A DNA stretch of 64,000 nt from Mobula hypostoma. Its lineage: Eukaryota. The notes under the pieces are model-generated. The model worked only from the letters and a program-made list of their open reading frames with translations. It was not told where the DNA came from and searched no databases. Of the stretch, positions 10,300 to 63,000 are shown in pieces. The position numbers were made by a program, and so were the translations under genes. Numbering within the stretch: position 1 is the first letter of the stretch; every line of letters starts with the position of its first letter. The stretch is taken from the NCBI RefSeq assembly GCF_963921235.1, contig NC_086108.1, positions 50,904,001 through 50,968,000 on the forward strand. Direction: 5' to 3'.

Positions 10300-10504
10300 C
10301 ATCAAGCAGTAGTAAATCAAGGCAACTGTACTCACTGGTAAACCTGTACAGTTTATAAACCGGAAAGCTACCCACCATGGATCAGACTGAAGAAGCCTCT
10401 CGGATCAGTGGTGAAACATCTTCTAGACACCACAGCAAGTCCAGTTACCTTGATTTACTACTGCTTGATATACGATGACCTGAATGACTGAGAACCTTCG
10501 TTGA
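10300..10504 (+). mobile_element. 205-bp Penelope-like mini element with inverted repeat and hammerhead-like motif
   Basis: 12-bp TSD CTTATGATTTTA (10288-10299 and 10505-10516). 27/28 inverted repeat at 10301-10328 vs 10442-10469. CTGAAGA...GAAACATC at about 10387-10420. Confidence 0.75.
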
Positions 10505-19365: not shown

Positions 19366-20103
19366 AAACCCATGTAATCTCTTGTGCTTACTTTAACCTG
19401 GTATAACAAACCTTCCATTCAAGGATTCAACCAAAGCAACAAAGCACTCTTCCTTTAGAAGTATATCCTTCAATGAATAAGATCAAGCCTGTATACAATA
19501 TTCCAATGTTGTTTCATCAAGCAGGAACACATTTAGTCTTTACTCTTGCAGTGTAATCCTTTCACCATAGAGGCCTATATGCAGTTTGCTTCCTAATTGC
19601 TCACTTCATCTCAGTTAATTTTAAGTAATTCATAGAAAGGGCTCCTGGGAACACAAAACATCTTACACCTCTCACCATTTTAAAAACTACAATCAGGAAA
19701 GAAGTTAAGAAAATAAAGCACAATAATATTTTTTAAAGAATAAATAAATATATTATACAAATAAAGGTAAATCTTTAAAAGAGTAAACAACAATGTACCA
19801 AGAAAATGCCACAAACAAGAAATCAGATTATTTGTCACTGTGGATGCTTCAGTGAATTAAATAGTCTTGAATCAAAAAAGGAAAATAAGCATTTTTGTAT
19901 TAAAGACAAGGCAGATACTGTACAAACAAAAATCCAGGAAATAATTTGAAATTCAAGAATGAGCAAGTCAGCACTAAAGCAATTAGACTTTTATTCCTGA
20001 ATGATACTGATGCCTTAGGCAATTCACAATGAGTTACATCTTCCCATGATAAATTAACATTCTTTTGCAAAGCTTTTGTTTTCTTTTTATCCTTCTGAAA
20101 CAG

Positions 20104-20631
20104 ATGAGTGTACAAGAATATGAAATGATTCAAGATGAGGAAGATGAAGCTTGCCTTCGTAGGTACCGCAAGCAATGCATGCAAGAGATGCACCAGCAGC
20201 TAAGCTTTGGCCCCCAGTTTGGAATGCTTTATGAGCTTGAAAGTGGGGAGCAATTCTTGGAAGTGATTGAAAAGGAATTGAAAAAAACTACAGTGATGGT
20301 GAATGTTTACGAGGACAGAGTGAAGGGATGCGAGTCTTTGATTAACTGTTTAACATGCCTTGCTTTGGAATATCCTTTGGTTAAGTTCTGTAAAATAAAG
20401 GCCTCTAACACTGGAACTAGTAACCGCTTCTCTGATAATATTCTACCAGCACTATTGGTGTACAAGGCAGGAGAACTAATTGGCAACTTCCTTCACATTA
20501 CCGAGCAGCTGGGTGAAGAATTTTTTGCGGTGGATGTTGAAACTTTCCTCAATGAATATGGCCTTTTGCCAGAAAGAGAATTCACTGCTTGTGAAAATGC
20601 TAGTGATGGCAGTGATGTAGATATTGAATGA
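20104..20631 (+). CDS. PDC: Phosducin, last coding exon, thioredoxin-like domain ([26 protein letters not shown]...[16 protein letters not shown]...SDVDIE*)
   Basis: Pyrimidine-rich acceptor ending aacag at 20103. The ORF is clearly phosducin family. Spliced product is 77+175 = 252 aa. Confidence 0.96.
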
Positions 20632-33290: not shown

Positions 33291-36177
33291 ACACACATCA
33301 AAGTTGCTGGTGAACACAGCAGGCCAGGCAGCATCTCTAGGAAGAGGTGCAGTCGACGTTTTGGGCCGAGACCCTTCGGCAGGACTAACTGAAAGAAGAG
33401 CTAGTAAGAGATTTGAAAGTGGGAGGGGGAGGGGGAGAACCAAAACGATAGGAGAAGACAGGAGGGAGAGGGATGGAGCCAAGAGATGGACAGGTGATTG
33501 GCAAAAGGGATATGAGAGGATCAAGGGACAGGAGGCCTAGGGAGAAAGAAAAGGGGGAGGGGGGGAAAACCCAGAGGATGGGCAAGGGGTATAGTGAGAG
33601 GGACAGAGGGAGAAAAAGGAGAGAGAGAAAAAGAATGTGTGTATATAAATAAGTAACAGATGGGATAGGAGGGGCATTAGCGAAAGTTTGAGAAGTCAAT
33701 GTTCATGCCATCAGGTTGGAGGCTACCCAGACGGAATATAAGGTGTTGTTCCTCCAACCTGAGTGTGGCTTCATCTTTACAGTAGAGGAGGCCGTGGATA
33801 GTCATAGTCATACTTTATTGATCCCGGGGGAAATTGGTTTTCGTTACAGTTGCACCATAAATAATAAATAGTAATAAAACCATAAATAGTTAAATAGTAA
33901 TATGTAAATTATAGCAGGAAATAAGTCCAGGACCAGCCTATTGGCTCAGGGTGTCTGAGCCTCCAAGGGAGGAGTTGTAAAGTTTGATGGCCACAGGCAG
34001 GAATGACTTCCTATGACGCTCTGGTGTTGCATCTCGGTGGAATGAGTCTCTGGCTGAATGTACTCCTGTGCCCAACCAGTCCATTATGTAGTGGATGGGA
34101 GACATTGTCCAAGATGGCATGCAACTTCGACAGCATCCTCTTTTCAGACACCACCGTCAGAGAGTCCAGTTCCATCCCCTCAACACCACTGGCCTTACGA
34201 ATGAGTTTGTTGATTCTGTTGGTGTCTGCTACCCTCAGCCTGCTGCCCCAGCACACAACAGCAAACATGATAGCACTGGCCACCACAGACTCGTAGAACA
34301 TCCTCAGCATTGTCCAGTAGATGTTAAAGGACCTCAGTCTCCTCAGGAAATAGAGACAGCTCTGACCCTTCTTGTAGACAGCCTCAGTGTTCTTTGACCA
34401 GTCCAGTTTATTGTCAATTCGTATCCCCAGGTATTTGTAATCCTCCACCATGTCCACCCTGAGCCCCTGGATGGAAACAGGGGTCACCGGTACCTTAGCT
34501 CTCCTCAGGTCTACCACCAGCTCCTTAGTCTTTTTCACATTAAGCTGCAGATAATTCTGCTCACACCATGTGACAAAGTTTCCTATCGTAGTCCTGTACT
34601 CAGCCTCATCTCCCTTGCTGATGCATCCAACTATGGCAGAGTCATCAGAAAACTTCTGAAGATGACAAGACTCTGTGCAGTAGTTGAAGTCCGAGGTGTA
34701 AATGGTGAAAAGAAAGGGAGACAACACAGTCCCCTGTGGAGCCCCAGTGCTGCTGATCACTCTGTCGGACACACAGTGTTGCAAGCACAAGTACTGTGGT
34801 CTGCCAGTCAGGTAATCAATAATCCATGACACCAGGAAAGCATCCACCTGCATCGCTGTCAGCTTCTCTCCCAGCACAGCAGGGCGGATGGTGTTGAACG
34901 CACTGGAGAAGTCAAAAAACATGACCCTCACAGTGTTCGCTGGCTTGTCCAGGTGGGCGTAGACACGGTTCAGCAGGTAGACGATGGCATCCTCAACTCC
35001 TAGTCGGGGCTGGTAAGCGAACTGGAGAGGATCTAAGTGCAGCCTGACCATAGGCCGGAGCAGCTCCAGAACAAGTCTCTCCAGGGTCTTCATGATGTGG
35101 GAGGTCAATGCCACCGGTCTGTAGTCATTGAGGCCGCTGGGGCGCGGCGTCTTCGGCACAGGGACAAGGCAGGACATATCAGAATGGGAATGGGACGTGC
35201 AATTAAAATGTGTGGCCACTGGGAGATCCTGCTTTCTCTGGTGGACAGAGCGTAGGCGTTCAGCGAAACGATCTCCCAGTCTGCGTCGGGTCTCGCCAAT
35301 ATATAGAAGGCCACATCGGGAGCACTGGACGCAGTATATCACCCCAGCTGACTCACAGGTGAAGTGTCGCCTCACCTGGAAGGACTGTCTGGGGCCCTGA
35401 ATGGTGGTAAGGGAGGAAGTGTAAGGGCATGTGTAGCACTTGTTCCGCTTACAAGGGAAAGTGCCAGGAGGGAGATGGGTGGGGAGGGATGGGGATGGGG
35501 GCGAATGGACAAGGGAGTTGCGTAGGGAGCGATCCCTGCGGAAAGCGGGGGGGGGGGAGGGAAAGATGTGCTTAGTGGTGGGATCCTGTTGGAGGTAGCA
35601 GAAGTTACGGAGAATAATATGTTGGACCCGGAGGCTGGCCTCCTCTACTGTAAAGATGAAGCCACACTCAGGTTGGAGGAACAACACCTTATATTCCGTC
35701 TGGGTAGCCTCCAACCTGATGGCATGAACATTGACTTCTCAAACTTCCGCTAATGCCCCAACTCCCCATCGTATCCCATCCGTTATTTATATATACACAC
35801 ATTCTTTTTCTCTCTCTCCTTTTTCTCCCTCTGTCCCTCTCATTATACCCCTTGCCCATCCTCTGGGTTTCCCCCCCTCCCCCTTTTCTTTCTCCCTAGG
35901 CCTCCTGTCCCATGATCCTCTCATATCCCCTTTGCCAATCAACTGTCCAGCTCTTGGCTCCATCCCTCCCCCTCCTGTCTTCTCCTATCATTTTGGATCT
36001 CCCCCTCCTCCTCCCACTTTCTTACTAGCTCTTCTTTCAGTTAGCCCTGACGAAGGGTCTCGGCCCAAAACATCGACTGTACCTCTTCCTAGAGATGCTG
36101 CCTGGCCTGCTGCGTTCACCAGCAACTTTGATGTTTGTTGCTTGAATTTCCAGCATCTGCAGATTTCCTCGTATTTG
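33291..36177 (-). mobile_element. 5'-truncated Penelope-like element (GIY-YIG endonuclease region) with ~500-bp inverted terminal repeats
   Basis: 13-bp TSD TGATGGTCAATTA (33278-33290, 36178-36190). Arms 33291-33793 and about 35637-36140 are inverted copies. CKRNKCYTC and VIYCVQCSRCGLLYIGET..R motifs; C-terminus IHGLLYCKDEATLRLEEQHLIFRLGSLQPDGMNIDFSNFR*. Confidence 0.92.
33798..35173 (-). mobile_element. Young 5'-truncated Rex1/Babar LINE (RT domain) nested in the PLE endonuclease
   Basis: LVPVPK..LNDYRPVALTS, QFAYQP, FFDFSSAFNTI, GAPQGTVLSP and KFSDD motifs. 3' end aataaagtat(gactat)2. One frameshift near 34025. Confidence 0.92.
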
Positions 36178-56377: not shown

Positions 56378-56978
56378 CATTTAAAAAAAGAGACTCTTGA
56401 TTGGTCAGAGGATTAAGATTTATGAGGAGAAGGTAAGTAAATGAGGTTGAGGAAAAAGAAGTCACGCTTCACTGAACTGCAAAACAGACTTGATAGGCTG
56501 AATAGCCTAATTCTGCTTTTATATAAAATGCTGAACACTGCAGCACAGAAATGGGCTCTTCAGCCCACGATACAATGTCAAGCTAATTAAATAAGTAATT
56601 AAATGTCTAACTAAACTACTCCCTTCTACCTACATAATATCCAAATCCCTAAGTACATTACAGCTGCACATCTCTGAGCTGCTTAAGCACTTCTACTGCA
56701 TTTCAACCTAACTAGAATAGTCAGCTGGTATCTTTTTCCCAACTAGAATAGTCAGCTAGTATCTTTTTCCCAGGATTGAAATGTGTCATATCAGAGGACA
56801 TGTATTTAAGGTGATAGGCGTAAGCTCAAAGGACAGAAAATGGTGGGTGTTTGGAATCCACTGCTCAGGAGTGGTTGTGCAGCCAAATACTGTATTGAGC
56901 AACCTAATTGTTGTGCATCATGCAACCCAAACACACAGAAAGTGATGATGCACAATTTTAAATGCAGTTGTCGGCATT

Positions 56979-57071
56979 AGTCCTGACGAAGGGTCTCGGC
57001 CTGAAACGTCAACTGCACCTCTTCCTAGAGATGCTGCCTGGCCTGCTGCGTTCACCAGCAACTTTTATGTG
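56979..57071 (+). mobile_element. 93-bp PLE-derived insert beginning with a minimal hammerhead motif
   Basis: 10-bp TSD TGTCGGCATT (56969-56978, 57072-57081); matches the PLE arm at about 36043-36137. Confidence 0.88.
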
Positions 57072-59286
57072 TGTCGGCATTTAAGTGTACCCTTATTTAA
57101 TCACTGATCTTCACCCTACCACAGAATCTTTCTCTTCTTCCCTCTCTTCTTTCTCAAAATTTGTTAACTTTCATTGTTTCTATCTCTGATGGAAGGCCTT
57201 CAACCCAAAATGTTGCTTATTTTGCTCACAAAGGATTTTGTTTGATCTACATTTGTTTTAATTTATATTTTCAACATTTACAATATTTTTCTTAAGTATA
57301 GGTACCTCTTATTAGTTAAATACACAAACTATCACTACTGTGACAGTTCCATATGAATGTGTTGACAAACTTATACAGCTTGACTGAGAAATTAGCTTAA
57401 GTGGTGTAGCTTAATTCAATGTAATGCAATTGAATGCACATTTTTCTGCCGTGAAACTACTTCCTGATCATTTCTTACCAGTTTGGATCTTCTGGCATTG
57501 GTTATGCATCTATATCATACCTAATTTCTAGATTGCTACCTGTGCCACATGACAGTAAGGGTAGAAACAGGATGATTTGGCAGATAAAAGCATGGCCAAG
57601 AAGCTATGCAAGGGGCAGGGCTTCAGGTTCTTGGATCATTAGATTCTCTTCTGGGGCAGGCATGATCTATACAAAAGCAATGGAGGGTGAACAGCTTTAA
57701 GTTCCTCAGCATAAACATCACCGAGGATCTCACGTGGTCTGCACATACCACTGTGTGGTGAAAATGACACAACAGCGCCTTTTCACCTCAGATGGTTAAG
57801 GATATTTGATGTGGGTCCTAATCCTAAGAACTTTCTCCTCTAATATATTTTTATTGAAGGAATGACACAATACAGAATACATAATGGATTACATTAACCT
57901 CCATTTTGCTTTTGTATCTTACCCCTAAACAAACCTCCCCTCACCCGCCCTCCCCGAACATACCATGGCAGCTAATGTATTTACAATACAACCATTCACA
58001 AATACAAGTAGGGACATTTCACAGCCATATCCCCACACTACTTCAAGACGAAGGCCCACACACATCCACAACGTGTCAGATAGTCCAAAGTACACTCATA
58101 CTACAGTTCATCAACCATCCTGTGAGGTAAACCATATGCGTGTTAAAAGGGAGGCAACTTCCCAAGTACAATCAAATGCCCTCAACTAGTAAGTAATTCC
58201 TTAAGACTCCCAAAACATGACAAGAAAGGTCCCCCTTTCCAGTACAACTTTTCACAGACCCCCTCAAAGTGAATTTAATCTTTTCTAATTTCAGAAAAAA
58301 ACATTACGTCCTCTAACCAAGCAGCAGCAGATGGGGGAGTGGCAGATTTCCAGACCAGCAAGATTCTCCTACGGGCCAATAGCGATGTAAATGCAATGAT
58401 ATCCGACTGGCTTGCATTTAAACCCAAAACATCATCTGCCACACCAAATATAGCTATAAGCGGGCAAAGTCTCAGTGTCACCCCCAAAACCTCACTGATA
58501 ATTTTAAAAACTAGTGCCCAATAGCCATCAAGCTGAGGGCAAGACCAAAATGCATGCACTAAACCAGTTGGAGAGAAGGAACACCTATCACAGCCAGCGT
58601 CTGTCCCGGGATATATGTCAGCAAGCCTGGCTTTACTTAAATGTACCCTGTGTAAAACTTTAAATTGTATGAGCCCCAGTCTAGCACATGATGACTAGGA
58701 ACGAATCCTATTCAATGCTTTTGCCCAATATTCCTTAGCCAGATCCATACCAAGGTCATCCTCCCACCTAGTCTTAGTTTTGTTTAGATCTTGAACTCCC
58801 AAAGACATCAGCTGAGAGTATAGTACAGAGATCAGCCCTTTATTATTAAAGTTAAGAGTGAGTTTTTCCCACAACATAGCAGGTGGCAGATCAGGAAAAG
58901 AGGGAAATTTTTCCTTGACAAAGTGGCAAATCTGCAGGTATTTTAAAAAATGATTATGCGGAAGGCCATGCTTACTGCACAGGTTATCAAAACTATCAAA
59001 TATGTTATCAGTGTACAAATCCTTAATACGCATAAGACCGTTCAAACCCCATTGTCTAAAAACTGAATCGAGCGTGGAGGGAAGAAATAGATGGTTTCTA
59101 TGAATGAGACCCAAAACTGAAGCTGGTGTGAATTTATAGTGGCAGCGAAATTGATTAAAAATTTTGAGGGTGGAAAGCACGACCGGGTTAGATGTGAATT
59201 GAGAGGATTTCAATGGTAAGGAAGAATACACTAAAGCTGAGAAACAAGGAGTGGCAAGACCGTGTCTCAAGCAGGCACCAGTTTGT

Positions 59287-59320
59287 GTCCTGACGAAGGG
59301 TCTCGGCCTGAAACGTCGAC
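59287..59320 (+). ncRNA. Minimal type I hammerhead ribozyme motif (PLE-type)
   Basis: GTC-CTGACGA-AGG(GTCTCGG)CCT-GAAA-CG-TC^GAC. Complete core CUGANGA/GAAA/GUC, stem I GUC/GAC, stem II AGG/CCU, loopless palindromic stem III (ACGU). Predicted cleavage after 59317. Confidence 0.75.
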
Positions 59321-59417
59321 TGCACCTCTTCCTAGATGCTGCCTGGCCTGCTGCGTTCACCAGCAACTTTTATGTGTGTTGCTTGAATTTCCAGCATCTG
59401 CAGAATTCCTGTTGTTT
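59287..59417 (+). mobile_element. 131-bp PLE-derived insert nested in L1 ORF2
   Basis: TSD ACCAGTTT(G/A)T (59277-59286, 59418-59427); matches the PLE arm at about 36044-36177. Confidence 0.88.
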
Positions 59418-59562
59418 ACCAGTTTATATCTGGCCGGTGGAGCCAAAATAATACCTTTTGAATGTTCGATGCCCAGTAATGATGAATAAAGCTAGGAAGG
59501 CCCATTCCACCTACGTCACAACCTCTATGGAGAGTGCGCTTATTAACCCTTGGGAACTTATT

Positions 59563-60016
59563 TTAGATTAGATTAGATTATGAGGACACTCAGTCCTCGT
59601 TTATTGTCATTTAGAAATGCATGCATTCATTAAGAAATGATACAATGTTCCTCCAGAGTGATATCACAAAATAAAACAGGACAGACCAAAGACAAACACT
59701 GACAAGACCACATAATTATAGCATATAGTTACAGCAGTGCAAAGCAATACCACAACTTGATAAAGAGCAGACCATGGGCATGGTTAAAAAAAAGTCTCAA
59801 AGTTCCGATGGACTGCTGACAGTCCCCGATAGCAAGCAGCAGAAGGGAGAAACTTTCCCTGCCATAAATCTCCAGGCGCTGACAACTGTCGATGCATTGG
59901 AAGCACCCGGCCACAGCCCACTCTGAGTCCGTCCAAAAACTTCGAGCCTCCGACCGGCCCTTTGACACCAAGCACCATCTCTGCCCAGCGCTTCGACCCT
60001 GTCCCGGCCGCCGAGA
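59563..60016 (-). mobile_element. 5'-truncated copy of the 25055-25733 retroelement nested in L1 ORF2
   Basis: (ttaga)n tail at 59563-59580, then tgaggacactcagtcctcgtttattgtc, the reverse complement of the 25700-25733 end. Confidence 0.85.
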
Positions 60017-63000
60017 CCCAAATAAAGGAGGTTACAGCTTGGTCGACTGATTTGAAAAATAACTTGGATAAGAAAACTGGCAAGCACTGGAACAAATAAA
60101 GAAATATGGGAAGTATAGTCATTTTCACTGATTGAATTTTCCCAGCTATAGTAAGGGGTAAACTACGCCATCTCTCAAAATCAGCCTTCATTTGGCTAAC
60201 CTGAGGCCTGTAGTTAGCTTCAAACAGAGATGTAAAAGAGCGAATAACGTGTATTCCGAGGTATACAAAACCATCTTGAGGTAAAGGAAAAGGCAAAGAT
60301 TCCTGTTGGATCTGCAGGGCCAAGTTATTAATGGGAAAGCATTTGCTTTTTTGAAAGTTCACTGTATAGCCAAAGAAGGCTCCAAATTGACCTAATAATG
60401 ACACAATAGCAGGACTGCTACCTACAGGGTCGCTAACATAAAGTAAGAGGTCATCAGCATATAGGGATACACAGTGTTCCATGTCCCCTCTCCTAACACC
60501 TTGAAATAATGTAGTTGACTTAAGTGCAATAGAAAGAGGCTCAATTGCAATTGCAAAAACAAGAGGGGACAATGGGCAGCCTTGGCGAGTGCCACGTGTT
60601 AATGGGAAATAGATCAAAATTAATTTGTCTATATACACGCTAAAGGCAAGTGATATAATAGCTTAACCCAGGCTACAAATATTCCGCCAAATCCAAATTT
60701 CTCCACAACACTCAACAAGTATACCCACTCCACTCTATCAAACGCCTTCTCCGCGTCCAAGGAGATAACAACCTCCAGACTCGGAGAAACACTGGGTGGA
60801 TACACCACATCAGCCAGTCGACAGATATTAAAAAAGAATGGCGATTTTTAATAAAACCTGTTTGATCATCTGAGATTATCTTGGGAAGTGGGTGTTCTAA
60901 ATGGCACGTAAGCACTTTAGCCAAAATGTTCACATCCACATTCAAAAGTGAGATGGGGGCGATATGGTCCACATTGAGTCGGGTCCTTGTCCTTCTTAAG
61001 AAGAAGTGAAATAGATGCCTGTGAAAGAGTAGGGGATAAGGAACTGTTCTCCAAAGATTCCTGAAACACTTCTAGAAGGACCAATATGAGCTTATCCTTA
61101 AATTTCTTATAAAATTATATCGAATAACCATCAGGACCTGGGGACTTACCACTCTGCATAGCCATAATGGCATTATTAATCTCTTCCTGCCCAAGAGCCC
61201 GATCTAAATTCTCCACCTCCTCTGGTTCAAGAGTTGGTATTTCCAAATTATCTAAAAAATGTTCCATATTTGTTATATCTGAGGGAAACTCTGAGGTATA
61301 CAGAGAGGAATTAAAAGTTGCAAAGATGTTATTAATCTCTTTTGGATTGCTTGTCAAGTTTTGGTGCATGTCTCTTATCTGGGGAATAAGTCGTGATGCA
61401 GCTTAACGCTTCAACTGATGAGCCATAAGCTGGCTCGCCTTGTCACCTTATTCATAATAGAGGCCACGTGTCTTAAGAATTAGTTGTTCTGATAGGTTTG
61501 TAGATAGAAGATGAAACTTCGCTTGCAAATCAGCTTGGCTTTTATATAATTCCACAGTGGGTGCCTCAGAATATTGCCTATCCAGGTCCAAAATAGATTG
61601 CAATAACAGTTGCATTTCCTTCCTACGCTCTTTATTGGCATGTGAAGTACAAGATATTATTTGAACCCTCAAGTAAGCTTTTAAAGTTTCCCGAAGTAAA
61701 GAGTACGATACCGACTCAGTTTTGTTAGTCTCGAAGAATGCGTCAATGTTAGCTGATATGTAACCACAAAATTTCTCATTGGAAAGCGAAAGGGGGTTAA
61801 GTCTCCACAGAGGCCGTTCTCTAACGTTTAAAGGAAAACAGGTCCAGTTTCACAGGCGAGTGAAGAGTATAGCAGTATACTCAATTTGTCTAATCATTGG
61901 TATCAATGAGCTATATATAAAGAAATAGTCCAGCCTGGAATAGGAGTGGTGAACATGAGAAAAGAAAGAGAATTGCCTAACTGATGGATTCAAAAATCTC
62001 CAAGGATCCATATAACCATTTTGTTGTATAAACATCAAGAAGGCCATTGCCATACCAGAAAATGTTCCCCTAGAGCTAGACCTATCAAGCAGTGGGTCAA
62101 TAGCACAGTTCAAATCTCCTGAAAAGATTGGCTGGTGTGTATTCAGGTTAGGTATTAATGACAAAACCTTATTTGCAAAGTGGACGTCATCCCAGTTAGG
62201 GGCATAAACATTTATCAAAATGACAGGTATCTGAAAGAGAGATCCAGAGACTATAATAAAGTGACCATTAGGGTCACTGATTACATCAGATGGTGTAAAC
62301 TGCATTCTTTTGGTGATTAGAATTGCCACCCCCCTGGACCTGCTATTAAATCTGGAATGAAAAACCTGACTAATCCATGCTTTACGAAGTCTATTATGGT
62401 CTTCCACTCTTAAATGTGTGTCTTGTAAAAACAGTATATCTGCTTTTAATTGTTTCAGATGAGAGAAAACTTTAGCTCTTTTAACAGGACCATTGAGCTC
62501 CTTTACATTCCAAGAAATAAACCTCACAGGGTGGCCTCCGTCAGCAGCACTCATGTTAACCATATCAAAAGACACACAGGGCCTACAATCCAAAACAGTG
62601 CGAGGGCACAAGTTGCACACAATAATGCACAGTGAAAGGAAAGTCTGACCAATCCGTAACACACAAAAGAATAAGCTGCCATGGTAATCCCCCAAAACGC
62701 TCCCCCCACCCCTTTACACAAACGACAAAAAAACTCAATTAACCCCCGAAACCTAGATCTACCTCCCAACTGAGGATGATTGCAGGCATTACCAAACAAA
62801 AAACTTCCAAAGCATTCGCCATACAACCAAACTTTCAATCTGATCTAGGGTGGCTCCCCTCCTTAAAATTTATTCCATCACTTATTCTACCTTTAATATA
62901 TATAGGCTAAAGATGACACAGGCCAAGCATTAAAAACAAAAAAAAAACTAGGAAACTAAACGCCAGAGATACAAATCCCAAATATTTACATTTTTCTGGT

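Follow-up and report, generated by a model that had tools for sequence, protein, structure and literature searches.

A short Penelope-like terminal-repeat insertion and a pile-up of related copies that begin at the 5' foot of its hammerhead motif

The insertion at 59287..59417 of the window, by which we mean the whole 64-kb stretch of DNA that was analysed, consists, on its sequence, of the terminal repeat and the tail of a Penelope-like element (PLE) of Neptune type. We regard it as probably a single short retro-copy of that repeat, a dead offcut made by the family's own enzyme, which stopped at the foot of the hammerhead. The insertion is one of tens of thousands and ordinary in kind, solo truncated motifs having been known since 2014 (PMC4209133). 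Many of the copies are young, so that the genome records where copying starts and stops and offers a handle on what PLE hammerheads do. This record holds no trace of the cut site, as in vitro work on an Anolis element predicted, and it holds a strong stop at the 5' edge of the ribozyme. The shared 5' edge likely marks where the copied RNA begins. If the hammerhead edge is indeed the RNA start, it would explain the solo minimal hammerheads that fill animal genomes and would provide a concrete route from PLEs to tandem retrozymes.

We numbered positions from window 59287 (the G of GTCCTGA) as +1, with negative numbers lying upstream in the parent element and the predicted cut falling after +31 (59317). 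The insertion is 131 bases long, lies on the plus strand and has target-site duplications (TSDs) on both sides, within an L1-type LINE. In all 11 L1 relatives examined, of 39 listed besides the window itself, the site was empty and carried a single ACCAGTTT(AT). Because ACCAGTTT stood only once at every empty site examined, the TSD is real, whether read as 8 bp exact plus 2 extra bases or as 10 bp with one mismatch; the first-pass annotation, made from the sequence alone, had correctly described a 131-bp insert with a TSD. The extra GT at 59285-59286 is either a junction addition or the mutated part of a 10-bp TSD. The insertion and its site comprise the following features:

58695..59572, minus strand: 3' part of ORF2 of the host L1-type LINE, with further reverse transcriptase (RT) and endonuclease pieces at 59784-60662 and 61850-62713
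59277..59284, plus strand: left TSD copy, ACCAGTTT, from the sequence; single at the empty site in 11/11 L1 relatives
59285..59286, plus strand: extra GT, neither TA (parent) nor AT (target)
59287..59320, plus strand: minimal type I hammerhead motif, from the sequence, a descriptor scan with shuffles, and energies
59321..59381, plus strand: remaining pseudo-LTR, extending to the nearer of the two common 3' ends (in full-size copies, about +96 to +100), from the 3'-end histogram of 190 copies
59382..59417, plus strand: optional PLE tail of about 36 nt, to the second common 3' end (+131 to +139), from the 3'-end histogram; continues into the ORF in full-length elements
59418..59425, plus strand: right TSD copy, from the sequence and the empty-site comparison

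In the hammerhead motif, stem I pairs GUC (59287-59289) with GAC (59318-59320) over 3 bp, the core CUGACGA (59290-59296) is followed by one extra A (59297) before helix II, and stem II pairs GGGU (59298-59301) with GCCU (59306-59309) over 4 bp around the loop CUCG. GAAA (59310-59313) then leads into the palindromic, loopless ACGU (59313-59316), with C17 at 59317. The core nucleotides C3-A9, G12-A14, A15.1-U16.1 and H17 are all present. A minimal-hammerhead descriptor matched the window once, at this copy, and matched none of 200 shuffled windows; together with the sequence, this bears out the earlier description of the first 34 nt as a type I hammerhead motif with a complete core and a loopless palindromic stem III. 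The 59287 copy retains 3 of the 5 stem I pairs of the parent repeat (UAGUC/GACUG), and its 10.1-11.1 pair in stem II is G-U, not G-C. It therefore departs from PLE-type hammerheads in helix I (4-5 bp) and in G10.1-C11.1, features found respectively in the parent repeat, with its 5 bp, and in the C form, with its G-C.

The annotation had also stated that these nucleotides fold as a hammerhead, which holds for the motif match and not for fold prediction, where the minimum free energy structures contained no hammerhead. It was absent from the predicted structure of the 131-nt insertion (z = -0.16), and a 36-nt piece favoured an inactive long hairpin (z = -0.71). For the loopless type such a failure of the programs is expected, but the fold then rests on the motif. 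An Rfam search of the insertion returned no hammerhead match at E <= 5, and the loopless type evidently lies outside the Rfam models. By nearest-neighbour energies, which ignore the tertiary core, the double-hammerhead fold scored -8.7 kcal/mol in the 59287 copy, -11.5 in the T form of the parent and -16.7 in its C form, and the inactive dimer folds scored -27.5, -30.3 and -34.1 kcal/mol, respectively. Being solo and having lost two of five stem I pairs, the 59287 copy would be a poor candidate for self-cleavage.

Older related families, compared by eye and very close to one another, retain the core and both stems and vary at N7 and in loop II. Their stem changes were one-sided (U-G/U-A), and no two-sided changes were seen by eye in these families, which are too close for a covariation count. 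At position +23, U at 11.1 is the commoner state across the family (97 T vs 54 C among 165 copies) and is carried by L247 and L254, the loci with a long ORF. Core mismatches included CUGCUGA (A6 to C) in seven copies (L203, L239, L378, two copies in L439, L471 and L200). The A6-to-C copies belong mostly to one older related group; the change is expected to impair catalysis, yet that group evidently amplified.

The insertion is, as the annotation had it, the best preserved ribozyme copy in the window, since each of the three others has a defect in the core or in stem I. The copy at 56980 has lost the pair adjoining the cut site, the copy at 36046 carries G12A and G16.2A, and the copy at 33385 carries A6C and G12A. 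The 59287 copy is a solo monomer between its TSDs, the nearest same-strand copy being 2.3 kb off and damaged. The related features of the window are:

56977..57074, plus strand: second short copy, tail-less, with its own TSD, starting at the same edge (-3); G to A just after the cut site
33291..36177, head-to-head inverted: longer 5'-truncated copy of the same PLE family; both hammerheads with core mutations
about 33794-35168, minus strand: unrelated RT element inside the inverted arm of the PLE copy (Pfam RVT_1 + ALKBH8_N)

The endonuclease-coding end of the 33291-36177 copy lies at 35169-35637 on the minus strand, and the unrelated RT element fuses with its frame to give a spurious 575-aa ORF. 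Of the PLE ORF, the 33291-36177 element has just the endonuclease end, and that interrupted, so it cannot have done the mobilising itself. The proposal that the insertion was mobilised by the PLE family seen there thus stands for the family's machinery and falls for that element itself. Elsewhere in the window, 10380-10430 on the plus strand holds a degraded hammerhead-like motif from a different family, with a CUGAAGA core, a longer stem II and GAAAC, which is probably the terminal repeat of another PLE. A coding exon of a phosducin-family host gene lies at 20053-20631 on the plus strand (Pfam PF02114, E 9.5e-85), and a tRNA gene search of the 64-kb window found none.

We then characterized the parent family in the 3.48-Gb genome, which contains 36,227 exact matches to a 35-mer of the repeat and 61,631 + 22,310 exact matches to two subfamily 24-mers (83,941 marker matches). 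The coding piece at 35169-35630 had 150 scored matches besides itself, at 88-93% identity, and 20 of those places were retrieved for a long-frame search. One of them, L247 (G000:C22:58786414-58793369, minus strand), is a nearly complete element; it spans about 3.6 kb and is bounded by 10-bp TSDs. Its open frame of 1,042 aa matched RVT_1 (E 3.6e-5) and, at its C-terminal end, a GIY-YIG domain (E 0.0027), both below the curated Pfam cut-offs, and contains the RT motifs DKG and YIDD and a CX4CxxC linker at residue 909, between RT and endonuclease. A comparison of the L247 ORF with solved structures gave no match. Linkers of the CX2-5CxxC type mark the Neptune and Nematis clades (PMC8557442), and the linker together with the vertebrate host would place the family in Neptune rather than Nematis. 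The repeat is the 3' pseudo-LTR of an L247-type element, and the insert equals its last 131-133 bases, confirming the annotated PLE terminal-repeat hammerhead with PLE tail. Pseudo-LTRs from partial tandems, inverted partners and the optional tail are all present in the parent family, and the 3' ends of 190 copies fell at about +96 to +100 or at +131 to +139. Directly before the hammerhead, in the segment from -22 to +1 (window 36013-36044), all long copies have TACTAAC/TACTCAC, resembling a branch point, together with a pyrimidine tract and two AG acceptors, and a YAG is kept at the same place in older related families.

The start points of copies were examined in an unbiased sample, taken as the first 100 listed places of two anchors downstream of the ribozyme (91 + 99 analysed) and drawn from the first 5-16 Mb of one contig. 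Forty-six of these 190 copies start at -8 to +7, or 2.4% per nt at risk compared with 0.19% at -31 to -400. This 12.4-fold pile-up (p about 1e-27) appeared separately in the two subfamily samples (12.4x and 11.9x), was 9.2-fold among the 116 non-inverted copies and was sharpest at +1; the contrast is conservative, since some upstream "ends" are subfamily divergence. The pile-up is also broad: 17 of the 46 copies start at +2 to +7, and a further 21/190 start at +8 to +19, inside the ribozyme. Half of the pile-up copies (23 of 46) are tied to inversions. Its breadth and this share of inversions fit a structure-linked stop as well as an RNA end. Among the non-inverted pile-up copies, 15/23 had a TSD of at least 8 bp. 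The family thus contains a recurrent, length-defined unit with TSDs, represented by the 46/190 copies and having two 3' ends.

Genome-wide, we counted matches to a 22-24-base anchor preceded by two non-parent letters. Such starts numbered 3,006 at +1, 623 at -3, 708 at -5 and 532 at +32, the cut site (raw counts, for which the anchors differ). Inspection of 30 loci for each position found plain starts in 20 (+1), 11 (-3), 12 (-5) and 7 (+32), and only 3 of those last 7 were plain by eye. Within the unbiased sample, 182/190 copies pass the cut site, and only 6 begin at +29 to +36. We also analysed 90 of 395 matches in which the repeat runs into the ORF; in 63 of these junction loci the sequence continues upstream past the cut site, and a start at +28 to +45 occurs in none of the 90. 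The 5' end of L247 itself lies at +38, 6 nt after the predicted cut site, the sole such case against 0/90 junction loci. Since copies run through the cut site without an excess of starts there, the ribozyme cut is invisible in the DNA record. The missing footprint agrees with dispensable cleavage, and a template that was cut and religated into a circle would look the same.

Several other sources of the 5' edge were considered and rejected. A start at the first splice acceptor (-3) or at a TCAGT initiator-like site (-5) is contradicted by the 623 and 708 starts there against 3,006 at +1. Copies of spliced RNA with a shared upstream exon would not account for it, as no common exon or leader preceded the starts. 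Among 220 non-standard upstream flanks, 7 rows matched the sense strand of the element, and a GT-AG joint occurred only in L316 (2 rows); no second GT-AG joint was found among the 90 junction loci. Transduction of host exons at the 5' end was dismissed because, of 119 copies with a start at -1 to +3, only 7 showed a distant duplication; six of these enclosed family sequence and one was a weak 11-bp match, and 26 of the 119 had no TSD of at least 9 bp. A stable cDNA hairpin as the cause was likewise set aside, being weak at about -2 to -3 kcal/mol. In assembled contigs of sequencing runs, whose run type is uncertain, there was no pile of molecule ends, and no acceptor splice joint among the joints listed. 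Four of those runs had loose ends at +1, but contigs cannot show RNA starts, and we counted none of these contig observations as evidence. A literature search found no report of a 5'-end pile-up at PLE hammerheads, with most subscription papers, figures and bioRxiv supplements outside its scope.

Short tandem arrays gave a second view of the 5' edge. They were found by script at 15/90 junction loci, and by eye at L267 and L304, and consist of the repeat plus 47-308 ORF bases rejoined to the repeat. In the 12 arrays compared, units differed by 0-5 of 88 bases (0-3 in matching two-unit arrays) against 6.0 for random pairs, a background that is generous because array loci are a young subset. By eye, the start of the outer unit and the inner junction lie no more than 2 nt apart in L290, L301, L313, L496 and L500, and no more than 7 nt apart in L273 and L275. 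Two passes that end at one point suggest a physical RNA 5' end. Three arrays depart from a single linear end (L303 and L299 run far upstream of the junction, and L268 has unlike units), L304 stops 20 bases short, and L267, L315 and L316 repeat one junction, as a circle would.

The position of the putative RNA end can be narrowed by the base before the hammerhead. A(-1) is retained at five inner junctions, and no inner junction starts at +1, compared with 5 unbiased copies at -1 and 11 at +1 (p = 0.012, from small numbers and chosen post hoc). Genomic joints peak at +1, which is one base further in than the proposed A(-1) start. RNA polymerase II typically initiates at a pyrimidine-A step. In D. 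virilis Penelope, a promoter inside the pseudo-LTR has been shown (PMC2377424). From the double stops of the arrays, the retention of A(-1), the pyrimidine-A step and this internal promoter, we infer that an RNA start near A(-1) is somewhat favoured, with a structure-linked stop holding a smaller but substantial share of the probability. Three arrays (L268, L303 and L502) have independent junctions within 3 bases of one another, at -124 to -126, in a pyrimidine run 125 nt upstream of the hammerhead. These junctions possibly reflect a second RNA start, at a distance similar to that of the D. virilis Penelope start site.

L316 (G000:C2:157815726-157818369, minus strand) has 310-bp units with four hammerheads inside one 13-bp TSD. 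Its repeated joint, the only such case, runs without overlap from a donor-like GT, 153 nt inside the ORF region, to the AG acceptor at -3, which is what rolling reverse transcription of a spliced circle would produce. Other short arrays (L315, L267, L273, L275, L290, L297, L301, L304, L313, L496 and L500) consist of the pseudo-LTR and the first 47-282 bases of the ORF region. Most of them hold two intact hammerheads 200-440 bp apart and are candidates for newly born retrozymes.

On a broader reading, which we hold tentatively and at somewhat less than even confidence, the element RNA would begin at the hammerhead foot, and reverse transcription starting inside the 5' repeat would mass-produce ribozyme cassettes of 95 and 133 bp (about 20,000), each a full copy of the initial part of the RNA; by jumping from the 5' end back to that RNA, the enzyme would build tandems with two or more intact hammerheads, so that retrozymes would be born from a PLE without cleavage being needed. 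A less probable, still credible alternative places the cause of the pile-up in the copying step, where +1 to +34 would form a long hairpin and the enzyme would drop off, fold back or be trimmed at its foot, which would also yield the inverted copies. The 36-nt RNA does favour a hairpin closed at +1, the ends do spread from +19 to -8, 23/46 pile-up copies are inverted, and self-priming at inverted junctions has been proposed for PLEs (PMC3846280). Against this, the mirror hairpin in cDNA is weak, at about -2 to -3 kcal/mol, and for the RNA hairpin stability does not exceed that of shuffles (z = -0.71). Moreover, non-inverted, TSD-flanked copies pile up too (9.2x), and both stops of L313, L273 and L275 lie outside the hairpin, at about -9 to -16.

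Next, we asked whether the short copies form a lineage of their own. The retrieved DNA held 446 copies, including 199 short copies (start at -8 to +7) and 172 long copies (start beyond -100). Short and long copies carry the same variants: the 13 commonest five-site haplotypes are all common to both, and none with n >= 4 is private to the short copies. The tail is present in 106/199 short and 89/172 long copies. Short and long copies do differ at +8, +9 and +23, at least in part because many short copies were picked by exact patterns. The 59287 copy differs from L002 only by a 2-nt deletion near 59334, in the 59321..59381 part, which occurs in no other of the 446 copies. An apparent private 5' end, GTGTC, shared by 29/30 best matches, proved to be query bias; GT precedes 356/3,006 of the +1 starts (11.8%, about 1 in 9), its chance share. 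In 106 unbiased long copies, the core and stems were intact in 63, and mismatches fell mainly at CpG sites, those of the core included, a pattern as in neutral decay after insertion.

These comparisons bear on the annotated inference of a non-autonomous mini-retroelement. As an independent SINE-like or retrozyme-like element, it would be transcribed as a unit, keep its ribozyme under selection and be moved in trans by the PLE. Copies of such shape are numerous (46/190, which would scale to about 20,000 for the 83,941 marker matches) and have sharp ends and TSDs; in rotifer PLEs, pseudo-LTR sequences suffice for mobilisation in trans (PMC3846280), and non-autonomous PLE derivatives have been described (PMC8557442). 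We nevertheless consider this reading unlikely and do not retain the inference, given the shared haplotypes, the lack of a haplotype private to the short copies or of a shared 5' leader, the GT start at its chance level and the occurrence of the 59287 deletion once in 446 copies. In addition, the starts of 17/46 copies at +2 to +7, and of a further 21 copies at +8 to +19, cut into stem I or the core, which means that there is no selection for a complete ribozyme. A SINE-like contribution may exist, since haplotypes would also be shared by copies made in trans from solo repeats that are transcribed.

That the 59287 copy is a monomer from a true retrozyme cycle of dimer cleavage, circle ligation and reverse transcription is very improbable, even though the family makes short tandem arrays (15/90 by script and two by eye) and L316 has four hammerheads at 310-bp spacing within one TSD, because a cleavage product would begin at +32 and the copy begins at +1, there is no excess of starts at +32 (532 vs 3,006, with about 3/30 of those checked plain), the arrays contain 47-308 nt of ORF absent from this copy, and its double-hammerhead fold reaches -8.7 against -27.5 kcal/mol for the inactive dimer, tertiary core ignored. 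The retrozyme-like lineage of the annotation, represented here by a solo monomer and showing no excess of copies that start at the cut site, accordingly found no support.

Under the preferred reading of a dead offcut, the family's RT-endonuclease would have started copying at the outer "tail" site, leaving off at the 5' foot of an uncut hammerhead. The endonuclease target was an L1 copy, which acquired the observed 8-bp duplication. The 3' end is one of the two standard ends of the family, which would correspond to internal reverse-transcription starts, as work on the Anolis PLE suggests. Stops show no excess at the cut site, and the template would have been uncut there or re-ligated. Stops at -8 to +7 show the 12-fold excess, and many template RNAs may begin at about A(-1), with the enzyme running off after 95-133 nt; we rate this a little above even, and stalling or trimming lower, at roughly one case in three. 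With a stem I of 3 bp, no tandem partner and no upstream sequence, the 59287 copy would neither cleave well nor make progeny.

The motif closely resembles the minimal PLE hammerheads described by Cervera and De la Pena (2014, PMC4209133), of which most are single and probably related to truncated PLEs. Like them, the 59287 copy has a loopless palindromic helix III, an extra base between 9 and 10.1 and a location in a terminal repeat, and helix I is where a splice-acceptor-like signal ends, both in this family and in D. virilis Penelope (PMC4209133). Its helix II of 4 bp and helix I of 3 bp compare with 4-5 bp in the S. mansoni families, and G-U at 10.1-11.1 is the commoner pair in this family, whereas G-C is highly conserved in that survey (PMC4209133). 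The copy number is also far higher here, with 36,227 exact 35-mers against about 9,000 motifs in Xenopus (PMC4209133). In the same report, single minimal motifs did not cleave and dimers cleaved weakly (PMC4209133); dimer cleavage of small PLE hammerheads is also credited to Lunse et al. (as cited in PMC6765202), and 1/9 Xenopus dimers cleaved in a recent study (10.64898/2026.07.22.740005).

A further close parallel is PAc, a Poseidon element of Anolis, which could insert in vitro without hammerhead cleavage and for which none of the RNA-seq reads in the data reported ended at the cut site; its self-cleavage needed the element's protein, and the optional tail was tied to two internal reverse-transcription starts (Frangieh et al. 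2024, PMC11167929). PAc and the present family share two 3' ends about 36 nt apart and a cut site without a footprint (PMC11167929). They differ in the CX4CxxC linker of Neptune/Nematis type, found here and unlike PAc, and in the 5'-end pile-up at the hammerhead, which the searched text and supplement text on PAc do not report (PMC11167929). Neptune-clade PLEs (Craig et al. 2021, PMC8557442) share with this family an RT with a C-terminal GIY-YIG domain, the CX2-5CxxC linker, partial tandems, an inverted 5'-truncated partner, a 30-40-bp tail and heavy 5' truncation. Non-LTR retrozymes are defined by a tandem arrangement in which two or more successive units carry a hammerhead, and they are expressed as circles (PMC7229834; 10.64898/2026.07.22.740005), and solo retrozyme "monomers" are described by Li, Clavereau and Pollet (2026, 10.64898/2026.07.22.740005). 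The 59287 copy resembles retrozymes in being short and non-coding, with a type I hammerhead, kinship to PLE pseudo-LTRs and long TSDs (Cervera and De la Pena 2020, PMC7229834; 10.64898/2026.07.22.740005). It differs from them in being solo and of minimal type, with no lineage of its own (PMC7229834; 10.64898/2026.07.22.740005). Instead of being bounded or processed at the cleavage site, it starts 31 nt upstream, and the tandem arrangement of retrozymes is seen only in its rare relatives (L316, L315, L273, L290 and others).
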